Part shown: positions 6,305 to 45,232 of the stretch, piece by piece
How the letters are laid out: each line of letters starts with the position of its first letter
How positions within the stretch are numbered: the first letter of the stretch is position 1
Source of the DNA: a virus
Lineage: Duplodnaviria > Caudoviricetes
Length of the DNA: 47,719 bases
IMG/VR virus record: IMGVR_UViG_3300031454_000010
Location: 1 to 47,719 of that record
Strand: one strand, 5' to 3'
The notes under the pieces: generated by a model
Told to the model about the DNA's origin: nothing
Seen by the model: only the letters and a program-made list of their open reading frames with translations
Database searches by the model: none
Program-made: the position numbers and the translations under genes

Positions 6305-6388
6305 TCAATCGTGCCAGAACGCGGGCGAGCGCACCACGTAGAGATCGCGCATGTCGTCTTGATCTCCACGCCAATGGATGTAGAAGAT
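6305..6388 (-). pseudogene. Relic 3' end of the 7022-7375 gene
   Basis: Translates IFYIHWRGDQDDMRDLYVVRSPAFWHD*, versus LYVVTWRGDADDMRDLVVVRSPAFWVD* at the end of the 7022-7375 gene. Confidence 0.9.
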
Positions 6389-6400
6389 TCCGCGTTCCGG

Positions 6401-6470
6401 TGGTATAATTAGGCGTAGTGAAGCCGAGGCACGGCGGCAACCGTCCTCGGCGTGACGCCCCATGAAGGAG
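6401..6470 (+). promoter_or_regulatory. Extended -10 promoter, leader hairpin and RBS of the HNH gene
   Basis: TGGTATAAT at 6401-6409; hairpin at 6423-6451; AAGGAG at 6465-6470. Confidence 0.7.
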
Positions 6471-6479
6471 CCTCCTGAG

Positions 6480-7025
6480 ATGCCCCGTAACTATACCAGG
6501 CGCCCCATCGAGGAACGATTCTGGGAGAAGGTTGATCGCAGCGGTGGCCCGGATGCCTGCTGGTTGTGGCAGGCGTCGTGCCGGAATGGTTACGGCCAGT
6601 TCGGCGTCCGAGCAGGGAAGATCGTGGTCGCGTCCCACTTCGCTTACGAATTGGCCTACGGTCCGCTTTCCGCTGGCATGTTCGCGCTCCATAATTGCCC
6701 CGGTGGCGACAATCCACGCTGCGTGAACCCGCGCCATCTCTACGCTGGAACGCAGCAAGACAACGTGCGGGACTGTGTTGCGAAAGGTCGCCACTCCCCA
6801 GGGAAGGGTGCGCCGTGCGGGGAGCGCAATGGTACCCGCACGCATCCCGAAGCCTACCGAGGTAGCAGGAATGCACACGCGCGGCTGAGCGAGGCCGAGG
6901 TGGGCGCCATGCGCGCTTACCACGCCGAACATCATCCCCAATTCAAAGACCTGGGGATGATGTTCGGCGTGGGCGCACAGGCGGCGCACAAGATTGTTTC
7001 TGGTCAGCGATGGAAGCACGTTTAG
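6480..7025 (+). CDS. HNH endonuclease (homing type), antisense to the phage late genes
   Basis: RFWEKVD...CWLW...GYG...LHNC..DNPRCVNPRHL..GT..DN..D, with a C-terminal HTH-like segment. Confidence 0.9.
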   Translation: MPRNYTRRPIEERFWEKVDRSGGPDACWLWQASCRNGYGQFGVRAGKIVVASHFAYELAYGPLSAGMFALHNCPGGDNPRCVNPRHLYAGTQQDNVRDCVAKGRHSPGKGAPCGERNGTRTHPEAYRGSRNAHARLSEAEVGAMRAYHAEHHPQFKDLGMMFGVGAQAAHKIVSGQRWKHV

Positions 7026-7375
7026 TCCACCCAGAAGGCGGGCGACCTGACAACGACAAGATCGCGCATGTCGTCGGCGTCGCCTCTCCACGTTACGACG
7101 TAGAGTTTCAGGCGGTTATCGGCGGGGTGGATGAGCGGCGACATACGAAAGACGTTGATCGGGCGCAGTGGATCGAGCGCGTTGAGGTCGAGGGTGCGGA
7201 AACCCAGATCCTCGAACCAGAAGTCGAACGAGCGCTTGCCGGGGCTGTGGCTGTAGGCCACGGAGGGGGGCATCGCGACCGTGCGCCCGCCCGGCATGGC
7301 GTACTGGTCCACGCCACGCGCGAACGGACCCTTGTAACTCACCTCGACTTGTCCCTCTCGCCATTCCCAACCCAT
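7022..7375 (-). CDS. Hypothetical protein (117 aa)
   Basis: GAGGAGG RBS; lies directly after the endolysin; conserved relic of its C-terminus supports coding. Confidence 0.75.
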   Translation of the reverse strand: MGWEWREGQVEVSYKGPFARGVDQYAMPGGRTVAMPPSVAYSHSPGKRSFDFWFEDLGFRTLDLNALDPLRPINVFRMSPLIHPADNRLKLYVVTWRGDADDMRDLVVVRSPAFWVD

Positions 7376-7388
7376 GTTCCGCCTCCTC

Positions 7389-9609: not shown

Positions 9610-9674
9610 GCGACAATTCCCCCTGTTGTAGCGGTTTCCTTCGGCTCCTCGCGAATCGCGATCGGTCGGCGGCA

Positions 9675-9812: not shown

Positions 9813-9846
9813 CGGCCACCTCCTATCGGAATACCTACGGTCACAG

Positions 9847-11667: not shown

Positions 11668-11693
11668 TGCCCGGCCCCTCCCTCGCGCGCAAC

Positions 11694-12601: not shown

Positions 12602-12613
12602 GCCCGCCTCCCG

Positions 12614-23568: not shown

Positions 23569-23937
23569 TTACGCCGCCACCAGGACCGCGCCGCGCACGG
23601 CGATGTTCTCGGGGAGGTCGAGCGGGAAGTAGCGGGCGACGCGGGCCAGCGGGGCGACGATGCCGAACGCCCAGCCTTCCCGCTCGGCGCGGCGGGCCAC
23701 CTGGCCGATGTGCTTACACATCCCGGTGTACTCGTAGCCCTGGCACGAACACGCCCAGCCGACCGGGGTGCGCTCGATGGCGTAGACGGTGCCGGGGGCG
23801 GAGCGGCTGGCGGTGATATACCGCCGCGCTTCCGAGATGACCACGACCCGCACGCCCAGCGTGCGGGCGCGGGCGCGGGCCTCCACCCGGCGGGCGGGGA
23901 AGGGCTTCGAGAAGGTGCGGGGCTGCGTGGCGCTCAT
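23569..23937 (-). CDS. SWIM zinc-finger protein
   Basis: Y.I.....W.CSC..Y.....CKH motif. Confidence 0.85.
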   Translation of the reverse strand: MSATQPRTFSKPFPARRVEARARARTLGVRVVVISEARRYITASRSAPGTVYAIERTPVGWACSCQGYEYTGMCKHIGQVARRAEREGWAFGIVAPLARVARYFPLDLPENIAVRGAVLVAA

Positions 23938-24015
23938 GGTGTAGAATCCTTTCGCGGCTTCCGGGTCGTGAGGGGCGGATACTCTTGGTCGGGTGCCGCC
24001 CCTCTTCGTTATCTT

Positions 24016-24085
24016 TATTGTACCGCGTTTATCTATACATGTCAAGCGTTTTGCGTTGCAGTGTTAGTCTTTATGCGGTACAATA
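24016..24085. promoter_or_regulatory. Back-to-back sigma70 promoters sharing an inverted 11-bp -10 region
   Basis: Minus strand TTGACA-17-TACAAT; plus strand TTGCAG-17-TACAAT. Both contain GCGGTACAATA. Confidence 0.85.
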
Positions 24086-24104
24086 CTTCGCAAGGAGGTG
24101 AGCA

Positions 24105-24254
24105 ATGCCAGAGGAAAAGAGGTCTGTTTCCTATCGCTTCGATCCGGAGATCGTGCGCCTGATTGATGCACTGAGAGCGAAGATGCACCTGTCGGCCACG
24201 GCGGTGATCATCACGGCGTTGCGCGAGTTGGCGAAAAAGGAAGGGGTGAATTGA
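24105..24254 (+). CDS. 49-aa ribbon-helix-helix protein
   Basis: AAGGAGGT RBS; MPEEKRSVSYRFDPEIVRLIDALRAKMHLSATAVIITALRELAKKEGVN*. Confidence 0.8.
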   Translation: MPEEKRSVSYRFDPEIVRLIDALRAKMHLSATAVIITALRELAKKEGVN

Positions 24255-24255
24255 G

Positions 24256-24770: not shown

Positions 24771-24816
24771 GCAGGTCGAGGCGGTGGTGGAGGACGTGGC
24801 GTCGCCGGTCGGCGCG

Positions 24817-32651: not shown

Positions 32652-34135
32652 GCAGCACCCCCCCCCTGGTTGGCGGTAGCGGGCGTTGTCGGCGTTGTCG
32701 GCGTTGTCGGCGCGCTGGGGTCGGCGGGTTGCGGTGGCGCGGTGAAACGTTCCCGCTCGACGGCAGTTTCGGATGGCTCGCGCGCGGGGAGTCCCAGCGC
32801 GCCATCCACCTGGGGCTTCTGCGAGGGCGTGAACCACCCGGCGCGCTGGAGATTCGCCACCGCGTTCATGCGCGGCGTCAAGTCTTCCTCCTCGACGCCG
32901 CCCAGCGAAACGAGGGGTGTGAGCGCGGCGGCCTGCTCCCCGAAATTGATCGTGGCCCACTGGCGCAGCACGTCGCGCCGGAGCAGCCGCGCGAGCGCCT
33001 TCTTCGCCTGCCGCACGCGCGTGTTCTTGGTGTCCTGGTGGACCTGCGCGGCGGCGCGCGCCTGGTGCTCGCCCTCCGTGGTGGCAAGCGTCTGCCCGCT
33101 GATCGCGAGCGTGATGTCGCGGTTGTACATCGCGAACGCATCGAGGAACGCCGCGCCGGTCCCCTGGCTGAACAACTCCTGGATCGCGGTGCCGAACGGC
33201 ACGGCCAGCGCGGTCCCATTGCGCAGCGCGATCAGCTGCGTCAGCAGCACGTCGACCGCGCGGATCACCGTGCCCGTGGGCTGGCCGTCCGGGCCGGTCT
33301 CCCACTCGTTTTGCGCCCCCTCGCCGAGGATGCCGACCAGGATCGGCGAGGCGAACTGGGTCAGGTATTTGACGTGTTCGATGAGGATCTGCTGCTTGAG
33401 GTTCCACGGGGTGTAGGCGGGGCGCAGGACGCTCGTGCCGCGCGGGTCGCCATCGACCGGGCGGAACGGGAGGTGCGCGAACTTGCCGCGCGGCAGGAGG
33501 TTCGGGGGCGGCTCCCCGCCCGCCGCGACGAAGAGCCCGCCCGGCAGGGTGCCGTACCGGCCGGGCACGCGCGCCAGGAACCCGACGAGGCGATTGTAGC
33601 GGTCCACCACGAACGACACCGCGTCGCGCGGTTTGGGGCGGAGCGCTCGCAGCACCAGGCCGGGCTTCCCGGCCACGTCGCCCGGCGCGTAGACCTGCTC
33701 GGCGACGCGGTTGCCGAGCGCCACGGCGCTCGCCAGATCCCACAGCACGTCGTCGAGCGGCGTGTCGAGATCATCGAGCATCCGTTCGGCGGCGTCGCGG
33801 ATCGTCGCCGCGAGCGCGTGGCCGTCCGCCGACGCGTCGTCCACGGCGGGCGCCAGCACGACGCCATCCTCCAGGATCGCGGCGCGGAAATTGTCGACCT
33901 CGGACGAGACGCGCGCGTCGCAACACATCCGATCGTAGAGGTCGGCCCCGAAATCGCGGGTGATGTCGTCGATATACAGCGGCAGGCCGCGCAGGAACGC
34001 CGTGGACCACACCCCGTTGCCGCCCGCCGCGTATTCGCGCTGCAAGTCGGCGCGCACGGTGAGTCCCGCCCCGGACGGTGCCGACGGCGACCCCTGCGTG
34101 GTGATCCGCTCGGTGATGCGCGCGACCAAGGGCAA
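32648..34135 (-). CDS. Portal protein (DUF935/Mu gp29-like)
   Basis: A..LG..V.E, P.G.S.LRP.Y..W..K, I..AI.GQTL.T and A.VH motifs. Confidence 0.88.
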   Translation of the reverse strand: MPLVARITERITTQGSPSAPSGAGLTVRADLQREYAAGGNGVWSTAFLRGLPLYIDDITRDFGADLYDRMCCDARVSSEVDNFRAAILEDGVVLAPAVDDASADGHALAATIRDAAERMLDDLDTPLDDVLWDLASAVALGNRVAEQVYAPGDVAGKPGLVLRALRPKPRDAVSFVVDRYNRLVGFLARVPGRYGTLPGGLFVAAGGEPPPNLLPRGKFAHLPFRPVDGDPRGTSVLRPAYTPWNLKQQILIEHVKYLTQFASPILVGILGEGAQNEWETGPDGQPTGTVIRAVDVLLTQLIALRNGTALAVPFGTAIQELFSQGTGAAFLDAFAMYNRDITLAISGQTLATTEGEHQARAAAQVHQDTKNTRVRQAKKALARLLRRDVLRQWATINFGEQAAALTPLVSLGGVEEEDLTPRMNAVANLQRAGWFTPSQKPQVDGALGLPAREPSETAVERERFTAPPQPADPSAPTTPTTPTTPATANQGGGAA

Positions 34136-34151
34136 CGACCCCGCCGCCGGA

Positions 34152-34244
34152 CCGTCGTGCGGTCATGTGGCCTGGGGGCCGTCGTGCGGCCGCTGACAAT
34201 AGTGCAATGCCCGAGAGTGTAGGGCGTACACGAACGAATGTCAA
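34152..34244 (-). promoter_or_regulatory. Portal promoter with direct repeat in the leader
   Basis: TTGACA-17-TACACT (34244-34216); CCGCACGACGG twice (34179-34189 and 34152-34162). Confidence 0.75.
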
Positions 34245-34546
34245 CCCTGCTGCTTGACGCGCCCGACACCCGGCTGCGTCGCGGGCACACCGAGCGGGCC
34301 GGGCGGACCGGGCCGGCCCGGCGGGGGTGGCGGGGGTGGCGGCGCATCCGGCGGCGGGACGAGGGGTTCGCCCCGCTGCTCGCCGCCGAGGTAGACGACG
34401 ACGCGCTTGTGACAGCCCCGGCAGTAGACGCCCCGGAGGACGCCGCGCACGAGCGTGGCGGGCGCGATGAAGAGGAGCTGATTGCAGCCCGAGGTGGCGC
34501 AGCGGTAGAACGTCTCGGCGGTCGCGACCGGTCGTCGGGTGTCCAT
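34241..34546 (-). CDS. Small Com-like zinc-finger protein with Pro-rich tail
   Basis: YRCATSGCNQLLF...YCRGC; GGGAGG RBS. Confidence 0.65.
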   Translation of the reverse strand: MDTRRPVATAETFYRCATSGCNQLLFIAPATLVRGVLRGVYCRGCHKRVVVYLGGEQRGEPLVPPPDAPPPPPPPPGRPGPPGPLGVPATQPGVGRVKQQG

Positions 34547-34562
34547 CGCCGCCCTCCCCCGT

Positions 34563-35921
34563 CTATCTGATCGTCGGCACGGCGCGCGCGCCGCCCACCG
34601 CGAACCCCTGGACCGGCAGCGGACGACCCGCCGCAAGAGCAGCGATGGCTGAGGCCATGACGCAATCCTGGGTTAAGTCCCGGTCTTGGTGCGCATAGAT
34701 CGACAACTCGCGCCGCCATTGCGGGAGGTCCGGGGCGACCAATTCGCCGCGCTGCATGAGGAGCTTCAGCGCGTCCAGGGCGTTGCGCTTCGTCTTCGCG
34801 GTGGTGGTGAACGGCTCCACCGCCACGTCCAGGAACTCGATCAGCGGGTCACCGCTGCCATTCGACTCCACCACCACCTTGCCGGGATACCGCCGGGCGC
34901 ACGCCTCGATCCGCGCCGCCTGTTGCGGGTAGGGGAGGTTGAGGTGCCGTTCGTAGGCCACCACGCGGAACGGCGCGGTCGTCACGTCGAAGGTGAGACC
35001 GACGAACGCGTCGTTGTGCCGCCCGATGTCGAAACCGGAGACGTAGCGGTGTCCGCGTTCCGGCCCGGCGAGCGGTGGGGCACCGGGGCGGAACAGCCGG
35101 TCGAGCTCCGCCACGGTGAACACCTCGCCGCCGGAACGGAGGAAGTCCACCGCATATTCCTGGGCGAACTGCTCATCGGTCAGGTGGTCGTCGTTCTTTT
35201 TCTGCTGCGGCCAGTCGGGGATGGTGCGCCAGACCGGGTGGACCTGCCAGGGGAGGAAGTGTGCCGACCACGGGGAAGCGGCATCCTGCGCGTCGAACCA
35301 GAGGCGCGCGAAGAGGTTATCCCGGCCTTTGACGGAGGAGAGGATGATCAGCCGCCCGCCCGTCTCGGCGAGCGTCGGGGTGATCGCGGTGTAGATCTCG
35401 TCGCCGTACTGCATCCACGCCATCTCATCCAAGACGACGAGCGTGGCGGCGACGCCGCGCCCCGCGCCGAGCGTGGCGGACTGGACGGTGATCGAACCGC
35501 CATGGGGGAACACGATGCTCATGGTATTGTCGGTCGTCGGGCGCGCGGGCAGGCGGCTGATCGCGGTACGGACGTATTGCAAGAACTTCGCGGCCTGATC
35601 GCCCGTGCGCGAGACGACGAGGACCGTGCCCCCGGCCAACCCTTCGGCGGCGCAGATGAACGCCACGTCCTGACTGATGCCGATCTGGCGCGACTTGGCG
35701 ACGATGAGACGGTCGGACGGGTCGGCGAGGATGGCGTCCTGGTAGTCGCGCGCCACGTCGGCGTAGCGTAGGACCGCGCCGGCTGCGGTGCGCAGGATGG
35801 CGTGCTGGTGTGCCCACGCGAGCGGTGCGAGTGGGGCCGACGCGGCGACCGGATAGAGCGCGCGGTACTTGGCCCTGGTGCGGGCGTAGCCGGGGGAGTA
35901 GGTCGCAGGCGCTGCGGTCAT
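34563..35921 (-). CDS. terL: Terminase large subunit
   Basis: KSRQIGIS, LVVLDE, F.QEY, GFDIG, VESNG.G and QDCVMA motifs. Confidence 0.93.
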   Translation of the reverse strand: MTAAPATYSPGYARTRAKYRALYPVAASAPLAPLAWAHQHAILRTAAGAVLRYADVARDYQDAILADPSDRLIVAKSRQIGISQDVAFICAAEGLAGGTVLVVSRTGDQAAKFLQYVRTAISRLPARPTTDNTMSIVFPHGGSITVQSATLGAGRGVAATLVVLDEMAWMQYGDEIYTAITPTLAETGGRLIILSSVKGRDNLFARLWFDAQDAASPWSAHFLPWQVHPVWRTIPDWPQQKKNDDHLTDEQFAQEYAVDFLRSGGEVFTVAELDRLFRPGAPPLAGPERGHRYVSGFDIGRHNDAFVGLTFDVTTAPFRVVAYERHLNLPYPQQAARIEACARRYPGKVVVESNGSGDPLIEFLDVAVEPFTTTAKTKRNALDALKLLMQRGELVAPDLPQWRRELSIYAHQDRDLTQDCVMASAIAALAAGRPLPVQGFAVGGARAVPTIR

Positions 35922-35947
35922 CGCGCCTCCTTGTTCCAATACGGTTC

Positions 35948-36367
35948 TCAGCGAGTTGGAGAAACGCTAAGCACCAGATCGCGCTCGATGCTGTCCACCA
36001 CGGCGCGATCGTCGCCCTTGCCGATCTCGGCGGCGATGGCCTCGGCCTCGCGGCGCTTGTCGGTGAGTTCGAGGCGGTCGGACGGCTTGCGCCACTCGCC
36101 CCCGCCGCGCCGTTCCAGGTAGAAGGTGATCGCGGCGACATTGCCCTGCCGCGAGGCGTGGCCGAGATCTTCGACGTAGAGGGCGATGGCCTCGGCTTCC
36201 GCCGTCGCTACTGCCGCAGAAAACACAGGGTAGTGTTTCCGCCAGGCGCGGAGGGTTTCGTAGCTGAGTCCGCTCATGCGCGCCGCATTGGTGAGCGTGT
36301 TGCCCCCCCGGATCGCCTTGACGATCCGCGTGGAGATGTCCTCGTTGTACTTCAGCGGCCTAGCCAT
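35948..36367 (-). CDS. terS: Terminase small subunit
   Basis: HTH IRGGNTLTNAARMSGLSYETLRAW; AA.FYLERR; directly upstream of terL. Confidence 0.8.
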   Translation of the reverse strand: MARPLKYNEDISTRIVKAIRGGNTLTNAARMSGLSYETLRAWRKHYPVFSAAVATAEAEAIALYVEDLGHASRQGNVAAITFYLERRGGGEWRKPSDRLELTDKRREAEAIAAEIGKGDDRAVVDSIERDLVLSVSPTR

Positions 36368-36812
36368 GGATGAGCCTTACCTGGGGATGTTTGGCGGCAT
36401 GACAGGGAACACACAGAGTGAGACCGTTGATCAGGTCGAAGCGGCGATGCGGATGGGTGGCCCAGTGGAGGATGTGCTGGGCATGAAGCGCCCCGCGTGC
36501 GCCGCATTTCCGACAGGTGTGGTTGTCGCGCGCGAAGACCGCGTTACGCCATTTGGCGTACTCGGGGGTATTGCGCCCCCCGCCCGAACCGGCGCGGATG
36601 CGGTTATCGACGGTGGCGATGTCGAGGCGATAGGTGAGCAACAGTCGCTCCCCATCGTGCAGATTACGGAGTTTCGCGTCGAGTTCACGCGTGAACTCCG
36701 CCAATGCCGCCTCGCGAATATCGGCGGTTTGATGAAGTCGCTCCGGGATCACTTGCTCGTGAATCGCTTGGACGATCTCGCGCGTCTTACGCTCTTGCTC
36801 GGTTACGAACAT
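36360..36812 (-). CDS. HNH endonuclease
   Basis: WR.AVF.RD..TC..CG....HI.......RFD..NG.TLC..CH. Confidence 0.9.
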   Translation of the reverse strand: MFVTEQERKTREIVQAIHEQVIPERLHQTADIREAALAEFTRELDAKLRNLHDGERLLLTYRLDIATVDNRIRAGSGGGRNTPEYAKWRNAVFARDNHTCRKCGARGALHAQHILHWATHPHRRFDLINGLTLCVPCHAAKHPQVRLIHG

Positions 36813-36988
36813 CGCGCAATCCTTTCGCCGTGTGGATCGAGCCGTCGCCAGCGGCAGAGGGTGCGGTAGGTGATCCCGGCCACGGCGGCGGAGGTATGGA
36901 GGGTGTTCCCGTTGCGAATGGCGTCAAGGAGCGTCTTTTGAACGGCGAGGCTCTTCCGCTTGTTCGGCGTGCCCTTGGGTTTCGCCAT
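36803..36988 (-). pseudogene. Relic 5' end of the terminase small subunit
   Basis: MAKPK...LLDAIRNGNTLHTSAAVAGITYRTLCRWRRLDP aligns to TerS IVKAIRGGNTLTNAARMSGLSYETLRAWRKHYP. Confidence 0.85.
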
Positions 36989-37031
36989 CGCCCCTCCCCG
37001 TCCGTCGTCCACGCGTCGCCCCTGCCTACTT

Positions 37032-37060
37032 AGTGTACAGGTGACACGATGTTACGTCAA
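37032..37060 (-). promoter_or_regulatory. Promoter of the packaging operon
   Basis: TTGACG-17-TACACT. Confidence 0.75.
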
Positions 37061-37075
37061 TCGGCGGCGGGGCGC

Positions 37076-37315
37076 TCAGCAGTACGCCCCATGGAGCAGC
37101 ACCACCGCGCCGGGCCGGTCGAAGTACGTCTCATGCAGCGTGTAGGGCGCGTCGGCGTGGGGCCGCAGCCCGCGCGCCATGAGCGCCGCATCGAGCAGCG
37201 CGCGGGCCTCGTCCGGGTGGCGCGCCACGATCACGGCGGCCACGCCCACGGGATCGTGGCCGTCATGGTCGGTGCAGAAGTAGAGCAGGTGGCCGGGCGG
37301 GACTGGGGGTCTCAT
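37076..37315 (-). CDS. Hypothetical protein
   Basis: GGAGG RBS, ATGA coupling. Confidence 0.6.
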   Translation of the reverse strand: MRPPVPPGHLLYFCTDHDGHDPVGVAAVIVARHPDEARALLDAALMARGLRPHADAPYTLHETYFDRPGAVVLLHGAYC

Positions 37316-37578
37316 CGCCCCGCCTCCTGCGCCTCGATCGCGTCGGCCAAGGCCACCAATTCCGCCGCCATGGCGCGTGCAAACCCCGGCGACAGGAAAA
37401 AGTCCTGATCGAGATAGCCTCCGGGGCGGTCGTCACGGATGCCGATACAGATCCAGACCTCGCGATCGTCGCGATTGAGCAGCAGGTAGCCAGTCTCGTT
37501 ATTGACACTCCACGCTTGATCGGCATCGTCCTCGACGTCGCAACGGTAGTCGCCCATCGGCGTGCTGTTACCCATCAC
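37312..37578 (-). CDS. Hypothetical protein
   Basis: GGAGGAGG RBS, overlapping operon arrangement. Confidence 0.6.
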   Translation of the reverse strand: MMGNSTPMGDYRCDVEDDADQAWSVNNETGYLLLNRDDREVWICIGIRDDRPGGYLDQDFFLSPGFARAMAAELVALADAIEAQEAGR

Positions 37579-37939
37579 CGCCCTCCTCCCCGTCCCCCGC
37601 CCCGGTCGCGGCGGCGCGGCGCGCGGCGAGGGCGGCGCGCCACGCGTCGATGCGACCCTCCAGGGCGGTGAGATCGTCGCCTTCCTTCTCGTTGTCGGCC
37701 TGGTAGCCCGCCAGCCACACCATCAGGCACTCCCCCAGCATGTCGCGCGCCTCATCCAGTGCCGCCGCGTCCGCCCGCTCGCGCGCCTGAGCGGCGGCGA
37801 GCGCGTCGAGGATGAGCGTGAGGTCCGCCCGCAGCGTCCCGTAGAGATCGCCGGACACCACCCATGGCTGCCCATCCGCGAAGGCCCGCAGCCGCGCCAC
37901 GGCCCCGTCCGGCGCGGCCCCCGTCGTCTCACTGGCCAT
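37568..37939 (-). CDS. Hypothetical protein
   Basis: Overlapping operon arrangement. Confidence 0.6.
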   Translation of the reverse strand: MASETTGAAPDGAVARLRAFADGQPWVVSGDLYGTLRADLTLILDALAAAQARERADAAALDEARDMLGECLMVWLAGYQADNEKEGDDLTALEGRIDAWRAALAARRAAATGAGDGEEGGDG

Positions 37940-38189
37940 CGCTCAACCGCCTCATGCCGCGTTGCAGGGGCGACCGATGCGCCACCGCCAGCACCACCGC
38001 GACTTCCTGCGTGGTCGGCTCGCGCCCCAGAAGCGCCGCCATCCTGCCGCGAATCGGCGCGTCGTGCGGGATCGTCCGCTCTTCCAGGAGCGCCCGCGTT
38101 GCCTCGCGCGAGGTCCACCGCGGATCGGGGAAACGCGGCGTCTCGTCCGGCGCGTCCCCCGGCGGCGTGGTGGCGGGGTCATTTGGCAT
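37929..38189 (-). CDS. Hypothetical protein
   Basis: GGAGG RBS before MPNDP. Confidence 0.55.
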   Translation of the reverse strand: MPNDPATTPPGDAPDETPRFPDPRWTSREATRALLEERTIPHDAPIRGRMAALLGREPTTQEVAVVLAVAHRSPLQRGMRRLSDGQ

Positions 38190-38391
38190 CGGTCGCCTCC
38201 TGCGCTCGTGTGAGCGCCCTTCGCGCCCCCGGACAGACCCCCCGGCCACAGTCCCGCCAAGTGCCCGCCTCGTCGCCGTGATACGCCTGATGGAGTATTT
38301 GGGCGAAATACGCCAGGTCCGCGATCAGCGCGTCGAGGGCCTCGCGCAGCCGCGCGATCTCCCCTGATTCGTCTGTCGCTCTCGCCATCAT
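38179..38391 (-). CDS. Hypothetical protein
   Basis: GGAGGGG RBS, coupling. Confidence 0.55.
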   Translation of the reverse strand: MMARATDESGEIARLREALDALIADLAYFAQILHQAYHGDEAGTWRDCGRGVCPGARRALTRAQEATDAK

Positions 38392-38663
38392 GCCCCCTCC
38401 GCTCCCGGCAGCGGATCGTCGTTGTCGTCGCCCCAGGTGAATAGCGCCGCGACGAACTCGATATGTGCGTCATCGAGGTTCAACCGAGCGCTGCCGCGAT
38501 CGGTCGCCAACCGCCGCGTGCGCTCTACGTCATAGTTGGTCGGATCGACCTCATACGCATACGCCGCCACCGCCCAACGGATGAACGCGCGCTTGTACTC
38601 GTCCATTGCCTGCGTCAGTTCTGGCCGTATCTCGCCCATCGGTACCGCAGCCATGGCCCGCAC
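38388..38663 (-). CDS. Hypothetical protein
   Basis: GAGAGGGG RBS, coupling. Confidence 0.55.
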   Translation of the reverse strand: MRAMAAVPMGEIRPELTQAMDEYKRAFIRWAVAAYAYEVDPTNYDVERTRRLATDRGSARLNLDDAHIEFVAALFTWGDDNDDPLPGAEGA

Positions 38664-38671
38664 CCCTCTCG

Positions 38672-39109
38672 CTACGCCGCCTCAACGCTTTCGAAAGTCA
38701 ACCGCACCATACCGGCGCGTAGCTGCGGATTCCTGCTCCAGCGGATCTCGCCCCACACGATCTGGCGATCATTTGAAATCACGATGCCCTGGACGCCATC
38801 GCAACTCGATTTGAGCAGCGCGATGGCCCCGTCATCGTCGAGTCGCCGCGCCCCTTTCGGCAGGATGAACTCGACCGAGAGGCGCACCGGGCCGGTCGGC
38901 CAGCGCGGGCCGTCGCGGCTAGCGCACCGCGCGGCGAGCGCGGCTTCGTAGCGCGCGGCCATCGCGAGTTTTGCCCGCTCGTAGCGGTTGCGAGAGCCAT
39001 TGGGGCTGAGGCGGTAACTCGGGGTACTCACCACGATCGTCAGTGCGCCCTGCGCCTCGCCAGCGCCCCCGTGCTGGCCGGTAGGCATTGCGGTGGTGTC
39101 ACCGGCCAT
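38672..39109 (-). CDS. RusA-like Holliday junction resolvase
   Basis: LSPN...RRLDDDG...K...DG.....ND.QI acidic motif. Confidence 0.7.
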   Translation of the reverse strand: MAGDTTAMPTGQHGGAGEAQGALTIVVSTPSYRLSPNGSRNRYERAKLAMAARYEAALAARCASRDGPRWPTGPVRLSVEFILPKGARRLDDDGAIALLKSSCDGVQGIVISNDRQIVWGEIRWSRNPQLRAGMVRLTFESVEAA

Positions 39110-39620
39110 CGTCGCCCCCCTCCGCGATCAGCGCCCGCACGTACCACTCCTTGCCTCGCACGAACGGGTGCCGCTGGGCGTGGCATGTTGTGCAAAGCCA
39201 AACGACATCAAGCGGGCGCGAATAATCCTCGTGGTGCGCCTGGATGCCGCGCTCCGAACCGCCGCACCCGGAACACGCATCGGGCTTGGCAACATCCCCC
39301 GCCCTCACCGCCGCGTGCAGCCGCCGACGCGCCAGGACATGGCGCACGCGATCCGCTTCTGTGCGGGTACGATCGAAGAAGTGGCTCCTCGCCCCCGAAA
39401 TCCTGGGTGCGCCCTTTTTCCCGTTCGCGGCGGCGTTTTCTTTTTTCAGACACCCGCAAGAACGAGTGCGTCCTTGGATTAAGTGCCGCGAGGGGACACG
39501 CTTGCGGGTGCCGCAAGCACACACGCACAGCCACATCAGACGGCCCTGTTTGTCCTGGCCGTGGGGTTCTCGTGCTTTCAGGCGACCGAACGTTTCACCC
39601 GCCAGTTGACGTCGTCTCAT
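39099..39620 (-). CDS. HNH-type endonuclease with N-terminal zinc-binding domain
   Basis: L.G..FGRL...WLC.C.CG...L..G.TRSCGC and C..CG....AHHEDY..PL.V.WLC..CH. Confidence 0.85.
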   Translation of the reverse strand: MRRRQLAGETFGRLKAREPHGQDKQGRLMWLCVCACGTRKRVPSRHLIQGRTRSCGCLKKENAAANGKKGAPRISGARSHFFDRTRTEADRVRHVLARRRLHAAVRAGDVAKPDACSGCGGSERGIQAHHEDYSRPLDVVWLCTTCHAQRHPFVRGKEWYVRALIAEGGDDGR

Positions 39621-40005
39621 CGCGGTCCTCCCCCATCGTGATCAACTTTTCGACGTAATAGCGGGCCTTGCGATAGTCGATCAGCGCAGCGCCCTTGCGC
39701 CCGGCGCGCGAGAGATACTTCAGCGCGTTGCCGAGCAGGAAACCGCGCAACTCGTCGGGCGTCAGCTTCGCCCGCAGGTAATCGATCGTCTCGATCCCGC
39801 CCGCCGTGTAGTGATCCGGGCGGTCGATCTGCGCCGCCACCACCTCGGCTTGCGCCGGTGGTGCCCCGTCACGCGCGTTTGCGGTCGCGGTGTCTCGGCG
39901 TGCATCGTGGCCCTCCTCGCGCGTTAGGGGACCGCTGGCGGCGCAGGCGGTCGCCAGGGCGGCACCGAGGCGGGCGGCGGCCTCGGCGCGGGCCAGGGGG
40001 GTCAC
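39595..40005 (-). CDS. DUF3310 (T7 gp1.7 nucleotide-kinase-like) protein
   Basis: P.HYT.GGIETID...GF..GNALKY..RAG.KG...D..KA.YY. Confidence 0.85.
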   Translation of the reverse strand: MTPLARAEAAARLGAALATACAASGPLTREEGHDARRDTATANARDGAPPAQAEVVAAQIDRPDHYTAGGIETIDYLRAKLTPDELRGFLLGNALKYLSRAGRKGAALIDYRKARYYVEKLITMGEDRDETTSTGG

Positions 40006-40250
40006 GAGGCACCCCACAATCGCTGTGCCCGCAACCACTGTTCCCGGCCTTCGGGCACCCACACGACATCGACGGCATCGGCCTCTTCGTCCAACACCAC
40101 CCGGGCATACCCGGCGCAATACATCCGCAGCATCGTCTCGGTATCATGGCCGCGCTGCACTCCGGCACCGATCAAGACCGCCAATAACGTTCGCAGGATA
40201 GCGCTAATCTGATCGAAGTCTCGCGGCAGCGTCGCGTCCGCCTCACCCAT
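40002..40250 (-). CDS. Hypothetical protein
   Basis: Overlapping operon arrangement. Confidence 0.55.
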   Translation of the reverse strand: MGEADATLPRDFDQISAILRTLLAVLIGAGVQRGHDTETMLRMYCAGYARVVLDEEADAVDVVWVPEGREQWLRAQRLWGAS

Positions 40251-40773
40251 CGCCCTGGCCCTCCCCCGCGTCGTCGCCCCACAGGCCCGGTCGCCCTGCC
40301 TCGGCTTGCCGCAACCCGGCAAGCACCCCTGGTGGCGCATCCCACGACCACAACCCGAGCGACCCGCGCGCGGGGATCGGCTCCGGCAGGGCCACGATGT
40401 CCCCGAGGAACCAGGCGTAGCGGCCCGGCGAGTAGTCGCCGAATGCCAGTTCGTTGCGACTCGGCGAGTAGCTATTGTCCACCTCCTCGACGGGTACGCA
40501 GTAGGCGAGGCGACACACGGCGATGACCGCCCCCAGCGGCAGGCCATCGTCCGGCGCGTGCAGGCCCAGCCCGGCCAGACGGAGTGCGCTGTGGCATGGT
40601 TCTTCCAAGCACAGGGCTTGCAAGCCGGGCGGGCCACCGACCGCACGCAGGCCCTTCGCCGCGTGGATCGCCAGCGGCCCGTGATAGGGCGTCCCCCAGG
40701 AGCGCGTCTCGATAGCTTTGGCCTTGATCGCCACCAGCGTGGCAAACGGTTGGGTCAAACTTAATGCCCGCAT
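40243..40773 (-). CDS. ASCH domain protein
   Basis: ALSLTQPFA.L.....K.IETRSW...G.LAIHA...RG.LGLW. Confidence 0.9.
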   Translation of the reverse strand: MRALSLTQPFATLVAIKAKAIETRSWGTPYHGPLAIHAAKGLRAVGGPPGLQALCLEEPCHSALRLAGLGLHAPDDGLPLGAVIAVCRLAYCVPVEEVDNSYSPSRNELAFGDYSPGRYAWFLGDIVALPEPIPARGSLGLWSWDAPPGVLAGLRQAEAGRPGLWGDDAGEGQGDG

Positions 40774-40867
40774 GGTCGCTCCTCCTCTAGCCCTCGCGCG
40801 TCAGCCGGTGTCGCCGCGCGGTCGCCGTCATCGCGCGCCTCCTCCTTGCTGTTTGCCGCTGCCGCCC

Positions 40868-41062
40868 CTAGCGGATCGTCGGCAGCCGTGTCGCCGTCGC
40901 CGGTCGTCGCCGCAGCTCATCCACGACACCCTCGTATTCGCCGAGCAGGCCGATGAACAGATCGTCGTGCGCCGGATCCTGTCGCCGCATGTCCAGCCCG
41001 TTCCAGAGGCGCGCGTAGAGCCGATCGCGGCGCGCGGCGAGGTCGGCGGTCGTCTCAGGCAT
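40868..41062 (-). CDS. Hypothetical protein
   Basis: GGAGG RBS; coupled to the helicase. Confidence 0.55.
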   Translation of the reverse strand: MPETTADLAARRDRLYARLWNGLDMRRQDPAHDDLFIGLLGEYEGVVDELRRRPATATRLPTIR

Positions 41063-42845
41063 CGTCCACCTCCGCTATCTCGGCGTCCCAGGGGTCGGTC
41101 GGCTCGCGGCGATACGCGACCGGCCCGCTCGCGTTGTACCGCCCGGTCAGCGGGTCGTAGAACAACTCGACCATGCCCGGCATACCCGACTCGGGCTGGA
41201 AGCGCACCTTCTGGACGTAGACCTGGGTGGGTCGCCGGTCGTCGGACGATTCCCGGTGGACCACGATCCCCACGTCCGCCTTGTTGCGCCACATCGAGCC
41301 GCCGGAGATGTCGTAGAGGGTCGGCACGGGGTAGGCCCCCTCCACCTTCGCCAGGGTCCGGGGATGCGCCACGAGCCAGACATGCACCTTGTGCGCGCGG
41401 GCGAAGCGCTTGATGGCGATCAGGCTCTGCCCCAGGTACTCGTCCTCGCGCAGCCCTGGGGGGCGGCTGTGCTCCAATTCGTTCCAGGGATCGATCACCA
41501 CGCCGGTCACGCCACGCCGACGGATCGCCACGCGCGCCAGTTCGAGGATGCGATCCAGCGCGTAGCCCCGCTCATCCTCGTCGGGCGGCAGGACGAAGGT
41601 CACGTACTCGTCGATCCACGCCCGCGCCTCGTCGCGTTCCGTGGCCGTCATCCGGGGGTGGGGGCCGCGCCGAAAGGGCTTACCGGTCGCGATCTGGAGG
41701 AGTTGCCCCAGGTGGCGCTCCAATGGCTGGTTCTCGGGCGAGCAGATCGCGAAGCGCCACCCGTGCGCCACGATCAGGTCGACCAGCAGCCAGTCCAGCC
41801 AGGCCGTCTTGCCCATGCCGGGGATCCCGGTCAGCACCGTCAGCGCCCCCGGCTTGACTTTGTAGAGCGCGGCCAGCGGCGCGCAGGTCGGCTCGACCCC
41901 CCCGGCCATGCCGTGGTCGTACAGGTCGGAGAGCCGGTCGGCCAGATCGTTGGGGGTGAAGAGTCCGGCCACCGGGACCGGGCGCGCCGCGTCGAGGCAG
42001 GCCGCGAGGGCCGGTGCGCCGTGCCTGACCAGGACCTCGTTGGCGTCCTTGCACCCCTCCGGCCAGGCGACGACGCGGCAGCGCGCCACCCCGATGCGGC
42101 GGATCAGCTCGTCTTGCAGGCCCCGGCCCGGCGCGTCGTTGTCCACCGCGATGATGTGATCGGCGATCCCCTCCAGGGTCGCGGCGGCGCTGTCGAGCGG
42201 GGCGAAATGGCCGGTCGGGTTGCGGGACTCGGGCGGCGGCGCGCCGTTCGGCATCGAGACGCAGGAGGTGAAGCCGACCACCGCGCAGGAGAGCTTGTCG
42301 ATCTCCCCCTCGACCCAGACCAGCGGGCGGGCGGGATCGATATCGTCGAGGCCGTAGAGCAGCAATTCGGCGTCCTTCTCCATGCGGAAGTGCTTGGCCC
42401 CGTCCCGGTATTTCACGTTGATCACCGCGCCATCCCGGAAATACGGGAAGGCGATCGTCGCCACCTCGCGCCCTGCCTGCGGCATCCAGATCTGGCGCGA
42501 TTCCAGGCGGTGCGCGTCGATCACCGCCGCCGTGAGGTGCCGATCGCCGGTCAGCCAGGCCCGCGCCCTGGCGTCGAGCGCGTCGGGATGCGACGGCGCG
42601 TAGGCGGGCCGGGCGAAGCGCCGGGGCTGCCGCACGCCGGGGATCGTGCCGTAGTCGTCCGCGCCCGTCTTCACGCCGCCACTCCAGCCGCAGTGCTTGC
42701 AATCCCAGGTCCCCTTGTCCGCGTTGACCGCCAGGCAGCGCTCGTGCGCCTTGCGCCGCGCGGCGCTGCACCGGGGGCAGGTGGTGCGGACCTCCCCCGT
42801 GGCACCGGGGGGCACGTCGATCCCGTGGTCCTCCAGCGTCGCCAT
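41055..42845 (-). CDS. Primase-helicase (T7 gp4/Twinkle-like)
   Basis: Zinc finger CPRC..CKHC; TOPRIM VEGEID, DND, KDANE; SF4 helicase GIPGMGKT, IDPW, VAHP, GG...NKAD. Confidence 0.92.
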   Translation of the reverse strand: MATLEDHGIDVPPGATGEVRTTCPRCSAARRKAHERCLAVNADKGTWDCKHCGWSGGVKTGADDYGTIPGVRQPRRFARPAYAPSHPDALDARARAWLTGDRHLTAAVIDAHRLESRQIWMPQAGREVATIAFPYFRDGAVINVKYRDGAKHFRMEKDAELLLYGLDDIDPARPLVWVEGEIDKLSCAVVGFTSCVSMPNGAPPPESRNPTGHFAPLDSAAATLEGIADHIIAVDNDAPGRGLQDELIRRIGVARCRVVAWPEGCKDANEVLVRHGAPALAACLDAARPVPVAGLFTPNDLADRLSDLYDHGMAGGVEPTCAPLAALYKVKPGALTVLTGIPGMGKTAWLDWLLVDLIVAHGWRFAICSPENQPLERHLGQLLQIATGKPFRRGPHPRMTATERDEARAWIDEYVTFVLPPDEDERGYALDRILELARVAIRRRGVTGVVIDPWNELEHSRPPGLREDEYLGQSLIAIKRFARAHKVHVWLVAHPRTLAKVEGAYPVPTLYDISGGSMWRNKADVGIVVHRESSDDRRPTQVYVQKVRFQPESGMPGMVELFYDPLTGRYNASGPVAYRREPTDPWDAEIAEVDDA

Positions 42846-43672
42846 CAGTCGTAGACCTGCCGCGCCCTGGCGACCTGGGGGTGGTTGTGGGGCAGGGCGC
42901 GCAGCGGGCTGGCCGGTTCGTCCTCCCAGCGGCGCTGGTTGAGCCAGGTCGAGGGCAGATTGATGTAGCGGCCCCCCTCCTGCTGCCACTCCGCCGCCTG
43001 CATCTTGCGGGCGATGGCGTCGAGCATCAGCGCCACGGTCGCCTCATCCGGCCTGTGCCGCTGCCACCACTTGACGGCCTCGGCTTTCGACTCGCGCCGG
43101 GGGTAGGCCCGCCAGAAGCGATCGAAGCGCCCCTGGTCCGCACGGGGCAGCGCGCCGCCAGCCAGCAGCCGGGGCGACGACATCGCCCCCTGGGGGGTAG
43201 GGGGGGACTCTTCCTCTTCTCTTCTCTTCTCTTCTCTTCTCTTCTCTTCTCTTCTACTAGGCGGTACCCCTCCCGTATCGCTCGATGGTGTATCGGCTAA
43301 CGATACGGGAGGGGTAGGCGAATCCCCGTCGCTTTCCGGCGGTGCGGGCAGATTGCTCGGGGAGGGTTTGTCGATCCTTTGCCACTGGCGGAAGTTGGTG
43401 AAGACGAGATAGATCCGCCCGTCGGCCTCGTACCGCCGCACTTGGCGCATGGCCTGAAGGATCGCGGCCAGGTCGTCCTCCGTGTCGGCGATCGTCGTGT
43501 CGGCGTAGACGGTCGGCACGACCAGCCGCACCGCCGCCGCCGAGCCTTTGAGCCGCCCGTCGTCGTCGGCATTGGAGAACAGGCCGATGTAGAGGAGCTG
43601 CTGGCGGGGGGTCAACTCGGCCATCCCCTCGTCCTGCCAGATCGACGGATCGATCATGCGCTTGCGTGGCAT
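42845..43672 (-). CDS. Replication initiator/replisome organiser
   Basis: R.IDPSIW...LLYIGL..NADDDGR...F..WQ.I; C-terminal FDRFW.AYPR..K...TWLNQ.RWED. Confidence 0.85.
   Translation of the reverse strand: MPRKRMIDPSIWQDEGMAELTPRQQLLYIGLFSNADDDGRLKGSAAAVRLVVPTVYADTTIADTEDDLAAILQAMRQVRRYEADGRIYLVFTNFRQWQRIDKPSPSNLPAPPESDGDSPTPPVSLADTPSSDTGGVPPSRREEKRREEKRREEEESPPTPQGAMSSPRLLAGGALPRADQGRFDRFWRAYPRRESKAEAVKWWQRHRPDEATVALMLDAIARKMQAAEWQQEGGRYINLPSTWLNQRRWEDEPASPLRALPHNHPQVARARQVYD
43214..43255. repeat. (AGAAG)n pentamer tract in the initiator linker
   Basis: About 8 perfect units encoding RREEKRREEK. Confidence 0.85.
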
Positions 43673-43926
43673 CAGCGTCCCTCCTTGAGCATGGTCACGG
43701 TGGCGAGCGTCTGCCGCAGCGCCCGCAGGTAGGCCCCCCGGCGCTGCTGTCGGGCGCTGGCCCGGTCGGCGCGCGGCAGTTCGGCGGTGGCGTCGAGGGT
43801 GGCCGCGTAGTCCGCGCCGAGGGGCGCGAGGGCGTCCGCGATCTCCGCGTGGGTGCGGAGCCGGTCCAGGGCGGCGGCGGTGTCCCCAGTGGTGCGCCAG
43901 GAGCGGTCGCGGGTCGGGTCGGGCAT
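43672..43926 (-). CDS. Hypothetical protein
   Basis: TGATG coupling on both sides. Confidence 0.6.
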   Translation of the reverse strand: MPDPTRDRSWRTTGDTAAALDRLRTHAEIADALAPLGADYAATLDATAELPRADRASARQQRRGAYLRALRQTLATVTMLKEGR

Positions 43927-44702
43927 CAGGACACCCCCAGGGGCAGGACGGCCTGCTGTAAGCGGCGCGCGGCGAGTTCACAAAACCGCTCCTCGACATC
44001 CACCCCGATGGCGCGAATCCCGGCGTCTTTGGCCGCGCGTAGCGTGGTTCCGCTGCCGCAAAAAGGATCGAGCACGGACATTGCGCCGCTGTCCCGTATA
44101 GCGCGGGCGGGCAGGCCGAGCGGGAACGGCGCGGGGTGTCCCGTCTCGTCATGCTCCATGCCCAGCCGCCACATGTCGCTGCGACCGGACGCCGCGTGGT
44201 CCCGCAATCGGAAGCCGGGCTTGGCGAACAGCAAGAGCCATTCGTATGCCGATGCGTAGCGGCGCAAGTTCACCCCGATCCCGGTGCCGCGATCCCAGGT
44301 GATGATCTGGCCCAATGTCAGCCCGCCGAAGTCGAGGCCGAGCGGCAGGCGCACCTTGCCGTGTTCCACGCGCGGACGGTGGTTGTAGTAGATCGCGCCG
44401 TCGTCGCCGACGACACGCCACAGGGCGGCGAGGACCGCGCGCTGCCACTCGTCGTACCGCTCCTGGGGCATGGCATCGTCGTGCGCGCCGTAACCGTCAC
44501 GGAATCGCCCCGCCCGGCTATTCGCGCCCGGACGGTACATGCCGCGCCCGTTGCCGCCCGGCACGAGGCCCATGTTGTAAGGCGGGCTGGTCACAACCAG
44601 ATCGACCGCCCCGACGGGCAGGAAAGGCAGCACGTCCTCGCACCTGCCGTGATAGATCGTGATCCGGCTATTCGTGTCCTGGTAATACGGGTTTATCGGC
44701 AC
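43926..44702 (-). CDS. Beta-class amino (N4C/N6A) DNA methyltransferase
   Basis: VTSPPY, HPAPFP and VLDPFCGSGTT motifs. Confidence 0.92.
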   Translation of the reverse strand: MPINPYYQDTNSRITIYHGRCEDVLPFLPVGAVDLVVTSPPYNMGLVPGGNGRGMYRPGANSRAGRFRDGYGAHDDAMPQERYDEWQRAVLAALWRVVGDDGAIYYNHRPRVEHGKVRLPLGLDFGGLTLGQIITWDRGTGIGVNLRRYASAYEWLLLFAKPGFRLRDHAASGRSDMWRLGMEHDETGHPAPFPLGLPARAIRDSGAMSVLDPFCGSGTTLRAAKDAGIRAIGVDVEERFCELAARRLQQAVLPLGVS

Positions 44703-45165
44703 GTTCGTACCTCCCCGTTTCGCGGTTGAAGCGAACGATGCCGTCGTTCAGCAACCCGACGAGCAAGGCGTCGTAGGAATTGTGAACATCGTTGTGGTGT
44801 GACTTGTCTCGGCATACATAGAGATTTTCTCGCGCATTGTCCGCTCGTATAGCGTTGACGTGATGCACGATTTCTTCGGGCGTTAGCGGACGGCCCAACG
44901 ATGCCTCCATCGCAAGGAGATGTTCTGCTCGCCAACGCCCTTTGCCCACGACCACCTTGACGAGAACGTAGCCATCGTGACCGAGGCGCGTCTCGCCGAG
45001 CGGCATACGTTGACGTTTCGTGTTCCAGGCCCGCCGTTGAGCGTCGCCAATCTTGCGACGATACTCCGTCGTCCGGGGAAGTCCTCGCAAGTTGTGACCA
45101 CTCACAAACTTGCGCCCCTCTGCCACTGCTTGTCCGCAACCGCACGCACACAACACCATGCCCAT
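44668..45165 (-). CDS. HNH endonuclease with CxCGC and NUMOD3-like N-terminus
   Basis: CACGCG...GHN; EH...ME..LGRPL...E.VHH.N....DN..ENL. Own TGTTATACT -10 (45193-45185) and AAGGAG RBS. Confidence 0.9.
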   Translation of the reverse strand: MGMVLCACGCGQAVAEGRKFVSGHNLRGLPRTTEYRRKIGDAQRRAWNTKRQRMPLGETRLGHDGYVLVKVVVGKGRWRAEHLLAMEASLGRPLTPEEIVHHVNAIRADNARENLYVCRDKSHHNDVHNSYDALLVGLLNDGIVRFNRETGRYERADKPVLPGHE

Positions 45166-45208
45166 TCTCCTTACTATGGGACATAGTATAACATTTTCTA
45201 GTACGGTA

Positions 45209-45232
45209 ATCCTGATCGTAGTAGGGGATCAT
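45209..45232 (-). pseudogene. Relic 5' end of the methyltransferase
   Basis: MIPYYDQD, ATGA-coupled to the upstream gene; compare MTase start MPINPYYQD. Confidence 0.7.

Follow-up and report, generated by a model that had tools for sequence, protein, structure and literature searches.

Four HNH endonuclease genes of one phage genome as probable homing cassettes that replace gene ends

Introduction

Homing nucleases of phages have been described as intron-borne, intein-borne, intergenic or gene-splitting. A terminus-replacing mechanism has been demonstrated, with cleavage proven, for the yeast WHO elements at FBA1 (Coughlan et al. 2020, PMC7282813); this and the other papers compared below are represented here by parts of their text. 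In WHO elements, as in our reading of the phage cassettes described here, the unit consists of a nuclease gene and a resistant gene end, the old end remains as a displaced fragment, splicing plays no part and the nuclease may face either way (PMC7282813). WHO elements differ in that their nuclease is intein-derived and carries a zinc finger, and in having one main target, using only 3' ends and forming clusters (PMC7282813), whereas the window analysed here (the whole stretch of 47,719 nucleotides of the tailed-phage record IMGVR_UViG_3300031454_000010), known from sequence alone, holds four unrelated HNH architectures at four targets, at 5' as well as 3' ends and without clustering. Relics in the window are as short as 8 codons, and one is fused into the nuclease. 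Membership of the WHO family proper was rejected, as all four window nucleases match HNH or phage endonuclease families; the word "phage" is absent from the main text of PMC7282813.

Several other systems share parts of this layout. The mORFs make gene hybrids in Allomyces (atp6) and Glomus (atp6, atp9, cox2, nad3), and they too attach a foreign terminus, strand the native terminus past the nuclease and occupy several genes per genome; they differ in being LAGLIDADG or GIY-YIG elements of organelles with C-terminal cases described (PMC3630166), whereas the window has HNH genes in a phage and includes N-terminal cases. The T4 seg and mob nucleases are likewise free-standing in phage and spread through repair that co-converts the neighbouring gene, but they are described as intergenic with distant cut sites or as splitting a gene into two polypeptides (PMC2988022), whereas in the window insertion is inside a gene end and a relic is left. 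The string "duplic" has no match in the available text of that review of intronless homing in T4 (PMC2988022). In phage Omega, insertion of the HNH gene gp51 also alters the end of its neighbour, giving lysin A a new 3' end, but the part of the account available describes a 35-bp loss and a possible repair error, with no relic or replacement model (Pope et al. 2013, PMC3706429). HNH homing into actinophage methylase genes without splicing is exemplified by ShiLan, where the insert differs in being read through in frame as a methylase loop, with no terminus duplicated in the text available (PMC11855218); a hidden HNH of this type was rejected for the window, where stops intervene and termini are duplicated. 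Finally, integrase elements with a replacement gene end in attP, such as e14 in icd with icdC, leave the target whole and the old end as a fragment, but use a site-specific recombinase, are excisable and span many kb (PMC13626634, PMC10111431), whereas the window cassettes contain no integrase. No phage description of a terminus-replacing design was found in the literature searched, the main texts of mostly non-subscription papers, and a precedent may exist.

Results

All four HNH genes separate a complete gene from a relic of that gene's terminus

Four HNH open reading frames, and no more, were found in the window using four profiles built from the window HNHs and their relatives, with PHROG and Pfam support (Table 1). 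Each is flanked on one side by a complete gene and on the other by a relic of that gene's terminus, which bears out the original observation that all four separate a gene from a diverged copy of its own end, although case 3 is the weakest of the four. The relics are matched better than the attached ends by HNH-free alleles (cases 1 and 2) or by family profiles (cases 3 and 4), and the relic is still coupled to the neighbouring gene or promoter as in the native arrangement. Since related phages mark the stranded copy as the original end, the inserts are likely to be selfish elements bringing a replacement end. From these sequence comparisons, we consider it probable that each of the four HNH genes is a free-standing homing element, the unit that moves being the nuclease gene together with a diverged copy of the start or end of the target gene, as in WHO elements and mORFs.

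Table 1. Features of the four HNH cassettes, in window coordinates
Feature	Position	Strand	Remark
Holin	5752..6295	-	Coupling to relic matches that of HNH-free alleles
Case 1 relic, original 3' end (HWRGDQDD...PAFWHD, stop) of gene 7022-7375	6305..6376	-	Stop overlaps holin ribosome-binding site
Likely HNH1 promoter (extended -10 TG-n-TATAAT, 6401-6409) and 5' hairpin (6423-6450)	6401..6450	+	Read from sequence
HNH1, N-terminal HNH_3-type domain and C-terminal extension	6480..7025	+	Convergent with host gene
Host gene 1, encoding a 117-aa hypothetical protein and flanked by endolysin and holin	7022..7375	-	Last ~24 codons (7022-7093) are the putative incoming end
terS with putative incoming (type A) 5' part, replaced through ~residue 95	35948..36367	-	Start overlaps HNH2 stop
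HNH2, C-terminal HNH domain	36360..36812	-	Profiles, family matches
Case 2 relic, original terS start, 61-codon ORF (51 homologous codons, 36836-36988)	36803..36988	-	Stop overlaps HNH2 start
Sigma-70-like promoter upstream of relic	37032..37060	-	One of 2 scan matches in 33000-47719 (0.7 expected)
RusA-like gene	38672..39109	-	Start overlaps case 3 relic
Case 3 relic, probable original 3' end of the DUF3310 gene (EWYVRALIAEGGDDGR, stop)	39099..39149	-	Now in-frame tail of HNH3
HNH3, N-terminal phrog_374-type domain and C-terminal HNH-like domain (phrog_2340)	39099..39620	-	Family matches
DUF3310 gene, start codon inferred	39595..40005	-	Likely incoming end spans last ~21 codons
N6/N4 DNA methyltransferase	43926..44702	-	First ~12 codons are the putative incoming start, overlapping HNH4 end
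HNH4, Cys-rich N-terminus and central HNH_3-type domain	44668..45165	-	Family matches
Likely HNH4 promoter (extended -10 TG-n-TATACT, 45193-45185) and hairpin	45155..45193	-	Read from sequence
Case 4 relic, original methyltransferase start MIPYYDQD	45209..45232	-	ATG overlaps stop of ORF 45229-45432

The observation that the four nucleases differ in architecture also held, the four being unrelated. Judged by eye, the catalytic residues of HNH1 and HNH4 look intact, and HNH2 and HNH3 appear to depart from the canonical motif: HNH2 has QH in place of D/H-H, with Gln at the position expected to hold a metal-binding Asp/His, and HNH3, like its relatives, lacks the motif Asn. These departures weigh against the homing reading. 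Of the further claim that at least two HNH genes carry their own promoter, extended -10 boxes were read before HNH1 and HNH4, but the list from a consensus promoter scan contains neither. The hairpin 5' of HNH1 has a fold z of -2.2, equalled by 6 of 200 shuffles; that of HNH4 pairs the start codon, closes a loop over the ribosome-binding site and is present in both the MFE and centroid structures, the whole fragment having a fold z of only -0.16.

No splicing is needed for any of the four genes, as had been predicted: all are complete as written, and no Rfam family reached the gathering score in the window. Annotation-missed introns do exist in ICP1 and cluster J phages, and the inserts might in principle be introns whose self-splicing would bring gene body and relic together again in the RNA; the HNH ORF and the replacement end take up all but ~20-100 nt of the inserts, and this reading has a nearly negligible probability.

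A search of solved structures gave no match, and sequence searches found no second copy of any window cassette. Contigs of a sequencing run that is possibly the source cover cases 2, 3 and 4 without difference and are not independent support. No read joint that skips an HNH gene was convincing, the 36056-36869 joint in run X2 having just 21 letters on one side. A GIY-YIG-like, non-HNH endonuclease gene starts at 24256(+), with no relic seen beside it by eye.

HNH-free alleles carry the relic in cases 1 and 2

In case 1, the final 27 residues of gene 7022-7375(-) are repeated at 6308-6388(-) with 70% identity (tblastn E 4e-10), a score reached by none of 1000 shuffles and at none of 808 window positions. 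In two HNH-free loci (L021, L022) the gene runs directly into holin, and the 19 nt over the stop, ribosome-binding site and holin ATG are those of the relic junction. Over the last 21 residues, all eight homologous proteins, from three clusters, are nearer the relic than the attached end, by 1-3 residues. No relatives of the case 1 gene were found in the viral contigs searched.

In case 2, residues 11-47 of terS are repeated at 36833-36943(-) with 41% identity (E 8e-6), which 0/1000 shuffles and 0/742 window positions matched in score. In the HNH-free locus L103, a full terS begins with a relic-type start, and terL comes next; this full-length terS shares 39/52 amino acids and 114/156 nt with the relic. 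An exact 18-nt match immediately precedes the junction, where the identity stops. The original prediction that HNH-free alleles carry the relic thus holds in cases 1 and 2. The sigma-70-like site precedes the relic rather than the working terS and is probably the promoter of the native terS.

HNH genes upstream of terminase can aid packaging (PMC10448857, in the part available), and HNH2, with its C-terminal HNH domain and fitting position, could be read as a packaging helper like HK97 gp74, next to an unrelated small HTH protein encoded by the upstream ORF. We give this reading very little credence, given that the upstream ORF matches, at the identity above, the beginning of the full-length terS of L103, where no HNH separates that start from the gene body or terS from terL. 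HNH2 as a homing nuclease could later have been domesticated.

The case 2 locus also bears on ordinary mosaicism, in which a diverged phage would donate an HNH gene with a neighbouring gene end through one homologous plus one illegitimate crossover, without targeted cutting, leaving relics as passive scars. Each terS start type is found in a phage where no HNH was detected beside it, the relic type in L103 and the "new" type in L104, and mosaicism could also yield the terS swap, which reaches well beyond the 51-codon relic to ~residue 95 and covers most of the gene. A second terS-start match near the gene was found at none of 87 other terS-like loci; a distant terS occurs in only 3 of 401 genomes of one class, and HNH2 has no relatives in the viral contigs searched.

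Family profiles favour the relic in cases 3 and 4

In the remaining two cases the pairwise similarity is not significant, its score being reached by 342/1000 shuffles in case 3 and 658/1000 in case 4, and the relics are carried by family-level evidence. The DUF3310 relic EWYVRALIAEG in the tail of HNH3 has a family-profile score reached by 2 of 386 control zones, although a fixed 11-column profile ranks it only 12th of 81,591. The WY of this relic is found in 39 of 41 DUF3310 homologs and the YY of the attached end in none of the 41; no WY tail was found at nine loci of other HNH3 relatives.

In case 4, the relic MIPYYDQD ranks first of 84,990 six-frame positions by family profile (30.6 bits, versus 16.2 bits for the gene's own start), a score reached by none of 382 control zones. 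The spacing from PYY to the next motif is 6 residues in 99/106 homologs and 8 in the attached start, and an M-x-P-Y start like that of the relic is present in 66/109. A PYY-type relic with an HNH in between was found at none of 80 methyltransferase loci. For both cases, the agreement of HNH-free alleles with the relic therefore stands at the family level, and no close empty allele missing the HNH alone was found. A relative of ~99% identity in run X2 is without the entire methyltransferase-HNH4 block, and this absence as a unit favours mosaicism.

The same layout might be left by old target-site duplications, in which insertion doubled the local gene end and the unused copy decayed, with no need of a foreign donor. 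In all four cases, as in the mycobacteriophage set described below, it is the unused copy that lies nearer the family and the empty alleles; as decay predicts the reverse, this alternative is largely refuted and is very improbable.

Cultured phages show the layout at close range

In mycobacteriophage Awesomesauce, the end of the methylase gene gp73 is followed by the HNH gene gp74, a relative of HNH1, and then by a relic. HNH-free LunaStella, Dante and Purky match the Awesomesauce relic at 54, 50 and 52 of 63 nt and its attached end at 38, 41 and 38 of 63 nt, respectively, and the relic end of DocMcStuffins resembles the empty allele of Purky. SkinnyPete, of another genus, is identical to Awesomesauce over 540 nt upstream and the 588-nt HNH and differs at 3 relic positions. 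In these phages the attached end moves with the nuclease, and the occurrence of an identical cassette beside different relics in two genera is compatible with repeated entry at one site.

These phages show at close range that the relic is the original end. Insertion inside the gene end is supported by the relic and gene layout together with the HNH-free alleles. The attached end probably arrived with the nuclease in the window as well; a second copy was seen for the mycobacteriophage cassette only. The claim that the incoming terminus is recoded did not hold in the window: the attached ends differ in amino acids, as diverged alleles rather than synonymous recodings, and near-synonymous, AT-rich recoding is clear in the mycobacteriophage cassette only. 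A codon-usage test, which leaves out the case 3 attached end, gave no clear recoding signal, the tested ends falling within the core-gene range. By sequence, the attached ends in the window look like alleles from diverged phages.

Mosaicism gains from Gordonia phages Bradissa and DumpsterDude, in which the HNH and relic have moved without the target gene and stand behind an unrelated gene. It is opposed by the identical cassette with differing relics in two genera, by junctions in or beside conserved motifs (HW, TLCRWR, WY and PYY; GNAV in mycobacteriophages) and by the presence of the layout at all four HNH genes of one genome, compared with 10/600 control ORFs reaching a flank-repeat score of 45. 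On balance, we regard mosaicism as unlikely.

Discussion

Under the preferred reading of terminus-replacing homing, the nuclease would nick or cut a conserved motif close to the gene end where a co-infecting or resident phage has an empty allele, and repair would use homology to the gene body on one side and to the relic on the other. The recipient would gain a chimeric yet whole gene, predicted to be cut-resistant, and its own old end would be displaced as a new relic. Entry of the cassette would require neither intron nor intein, and could proceed at 3' ends (cases 1 and 3) as well as 5' ends (cases 2 and 4). One genome would thus hold four independent cassettes apparently inside gene ends, supplying spare parts like the yeast WHO elements.

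If this is right, a gene terminus beside an HNH gene has a history different from that of the gene body, relics account for many tiny "hypothetical" ORFs, and the junction of relic and body predicts the nuclease target from sequence alone. The model is directly testable with Awesomesauce, SkinnyPete and DocMcStuffins versus LunaStella, Dante and Purky, all of which grow on M. smegmatis mc2 155.

The proposal of a general mobility mode was not established. A long relic was found at 1 of 56 other HNH genes by a test that misses short relics, and the HNH rate is not above that of control ORFs, of which 10/600 reach the same cut-off, a score of 45, and 3/600 a score of 60; seven top-scoring control ORFs inspected by eye include no nucleases. 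Applied to the window, this neighbour-terminus scan scores case 1 at 111 and the case 2 pair at 46 and misses cases 3 and 4. An earlier flank scan with low-complexity masking detected only one of the four window cases and, at a score of 50, no flank repeat at 36 other HNH genes. Among hand-picked tests of cultured-phage HNH loci, a relic pair was found in 2 of 17. EvePickles has the methylase and HNH with no relic, and the comparison of Fastidio with Geralt was uninformative, their upstream regions being non-homologous. It is conceivable, with slightly less than even confidence, that terminus-replacing HNH cassettes of unrelated architectures, acting at both gene ends, give homing nucleases a widespread third mode of residence in phage genes, in addition to introns and inteins. 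In that event, relics down to 8 codons would escape annotation and pairwise searches, and protein ends would be swapped routinely in terminases, methylases, SSBs and lysis genes. In Lactobacillus phage Lb, an 18-codon stub of the ssb start precedes the HNH, a gene outside the 56 because the HNH profiles used missed it. The best cultured-phage matches of HNH4 include HNHs nested in cluster J methylase genes.

HNH genes and stranded gene ends

The window, a complete virus record of 47,719 nt, has a G+C content of 70%, and genes for terminase, portal, capsid, tail, lysis and replication lie on its minus strand. Four profiles built from its HNH proteins and their relatives detected exactly four HNH open reading frames at E 1e-5, and the encoded proteins differ in PHROG matches and domain order. 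Below, "relic" denotes the copy of a gene terminus stranded beyond an HNH gene, and "attached end" the terminus on the working gene.

Features of the window and of the comparison loci
Feature	Position	Strand	Description
TIR-like ORF	911-1594
Gamma-glutamyltransferase-like gene	3693-5403		identified by eye from its motifs; start and body frames differ near 3,930
Case 1 relic	6305-6376		HWRGDQDDMRDLYVVRSPAFWHD, past the convergent HNH1
HNH1	6480-7025	+
Case 1 gene	7022-7375		117-aa hypothetical protein; terminus TWRGDADDMRDLVVVRSPAFWVD
Accessory module	23569-24840		low GC, within the tail region; a minus-strand ORF diverges from the two plus-strand genes below
Small regulator	24105-24254	+	in the module
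GIY-YIG-like endonuclease gene	24256 (start)	+	in the module; no relic seen by eye
HNH2	36360-36812	-
Case 2 relic	36803-36988		61-codon ORF downstream of a promoter-like site
HNH3	39099-39620	-
CTCTT tandem repeat	43206-43263		in the replication initiator gene; contigs break at the repeat
HNH4	44668-45165	-
Inverted repeat	45173-45187		perfect, 6 bp, overlapping the HNH4 -10 box
Case 4 relic	45209-45232		MIPYYDQD
Awesomesauce cassette	L205:1280-2044		MT553347.1; methylase gp73, HNH gp74, relic; related loci L299, L300
Lactobacillus phage Lb	L218:1130-1900		MG020111.1; 18-codon ssb start stub, HNH, complete ssb with diverged start
Bradissa, DumpsterDude (Gordonia phages)	L206:1970-2044; L301:1488-1560		HNH and methylase relic behind an unrelated gene
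Constella gp104/gp105	L213:350-1777		out-of-frame HNH nested within a cluster J methylase gene, ShiLan-like
Alteromonas phage AD45-P4	L214:475-2740		thymidylate synthase annotated as two pieces around two endonuclease-like genes; no duplicated end

HNH-free alleles in cases 1 and 2

The original prediction was that HNH-free alleles would carry the relic joined to the gene body, and such alleles were found in both cases. The two case 1 termini match at E 4e-10, a score reached by none of 1000 shuffles and at none of 808 positions. The relic's H and Y are kept in all three homolog clusters and its Q in two of the three, and over the last 21 residues all eight homologous proteins are nearer the relic than the attached end, by a margin of one to three residues. 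Two metagenome loci, L021 and L022 (61% protein identity), have no HNH gene; their gene runs directly into the holin, and 19 nt at this junction are identical to the relic junction. Judged by these alignments, the case 1 relic is the original 3' end of the gene.

The case 2 relic is similar to the start of terS (E 8e-6), and homologs of the terS body carry two start types. In the viral locus L103, the relic-type start continues into a complete terS with terL after it; 39/52 amino acids and 114/156 nucleotides are identical to the relic, including an exact 18-nt run directly ahead of the position at which the window diverges. The working terS has the other start type through about residue 95, so the conversion tract exceeds the relic in length; as this start type is also present in L104, where no HNH gene was detected nearby, what came in is a naturally occurring allele. 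Both observations complicate a simple reading of the terS swap.

Short relics in case 4 and, probably, case 3

With a profile of 109 homolog starts, the case 4 relic ranked first among 84,990 positions, ahead of the methyltransferase's own start, and its score was reached in none of 382 control zones. Its ATG overlaps the stop codon of the upstream ORF. In the attached start the spacing is 8 residues, as in 4/106 homologs, versus 6 residues in 99/106. The relic and HNH4 are separated by an extended -10 box and by a hairpin that covers the start codon; such hairpins control T4 nucleases, and this one may act likewise. The inverted repeat is a possible autorepression operator. A ~99% relative in X2, another study's sequencing run, lacks the whole methyltransferase-HNH4 block (43942-45248 replaced by 34 other letters) and is therefore uninformative on HNH4 insertion.

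In case 3, pairwise similarity between the termini was not significant. The DUF3310 ends recovered at 52 of 80 loci comprise 41 distinct sequences; WY is present in 39 of these and YY, the form in the window's gene, in none; the HNH3 tail, which overlaps the rusA start, reads EWYVRALIAEG. Its score was matched in 2/386 control zones by an ungapped local profile search, and it ranked 12th with a fixed 11-column profile and second with an 8-column profile whose columns were picked after data inspection. None of nine HNH3 relatives has a WY-type tail. The HNH3 tail is probably a relic of the DUF3310 3' end.

Frequency and cultured counterparts

Long relics were found at 1/56 HNH genes versus 10/600 control ORFs (score 45), in a test blind to short relics, including two of the window's four, and relic pairs appeared in 2 of 17 hand-picked tests. 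Long relics, to which this figure applies, are uncommon at HNH genes in this sample, which makes four of four in one genome unusual.

HNH1 relatives among cultured phages led to a mycobacteriophage set that replicates the layout independently. In Awesomesauce, the methylase ends in SGNAVTPCAARDLVGVVAQSLGVSA, followed by the HNH gene and an unannotated NAVTPPAARDLVGVVAESLGVTS. Of 63 nt compared, three HNH-free phages share 54, 50 and 52 with this relic and 38, 41 and 38 with the attached end, identifying the relic as the original end here too. The attached end shows mostly synonymous, AT-rich codon rewriting from about five codons before the relic start. In SkinnyPete, of another genus, 540 nt of methylase sequence and the HNH gene of 588 nt are identical to those of Awesomesauce, but the relic differs at three positions; the DocMcStuffins relic terminus resembles Purky's empty allele. 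An identical cassette with differing relics fits the prediction of repeated homing into different recipients, a pattern that could also arise by co-conversion over a long stretch or by transfer of a block. Two arrangements are counter-examples: the Gordonia phages (table), and EvePickles, with methylase and HNH and no relic. For the Lb ssb, the 20 records listed, of 309, contained no close empty allele. Among cultured phages, the best matches to HNH4 include the Constella HNH; Constella is not named in the available text of PMC11855218.

Proposed mechanism and precedents

The sequences show the layout, the relic as original end and the native coupling of relics, and no known intron family was found in the window. 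Under the proposed model, the target site would lie in a conserved motif at the junction, the nuclease would cleave or nick the empty allele, repair would use the gene body and relic as two homology arms, and the diverged attached end would confer resistance. This gene-end replacement design is already known: the same model is demonstrated for yeast WHO elements (PMC7282813) and described for mORFs of fungal mitochondria (PMC3630166), and integrase elements such as e14/icdC share the design (PMC13626634, PMC10111431). For phages, the precedents found are partial: intronless homing and split genes (PMC2988022), an HNH insertion that gave lysin A a new end (PMC3706429) and ShiLan (PMC11855218). 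No phage description of relic-plus-replacement cassettes was found in the openly available main texts searched. The window contributes four cassettes, at both gene ends, in a single genome, and a path to a cultured, testable phage set.

At the window's left end, the gamma-glutamyltransferase-like gene and the TIR-like ORF suggest host or moron DNA.
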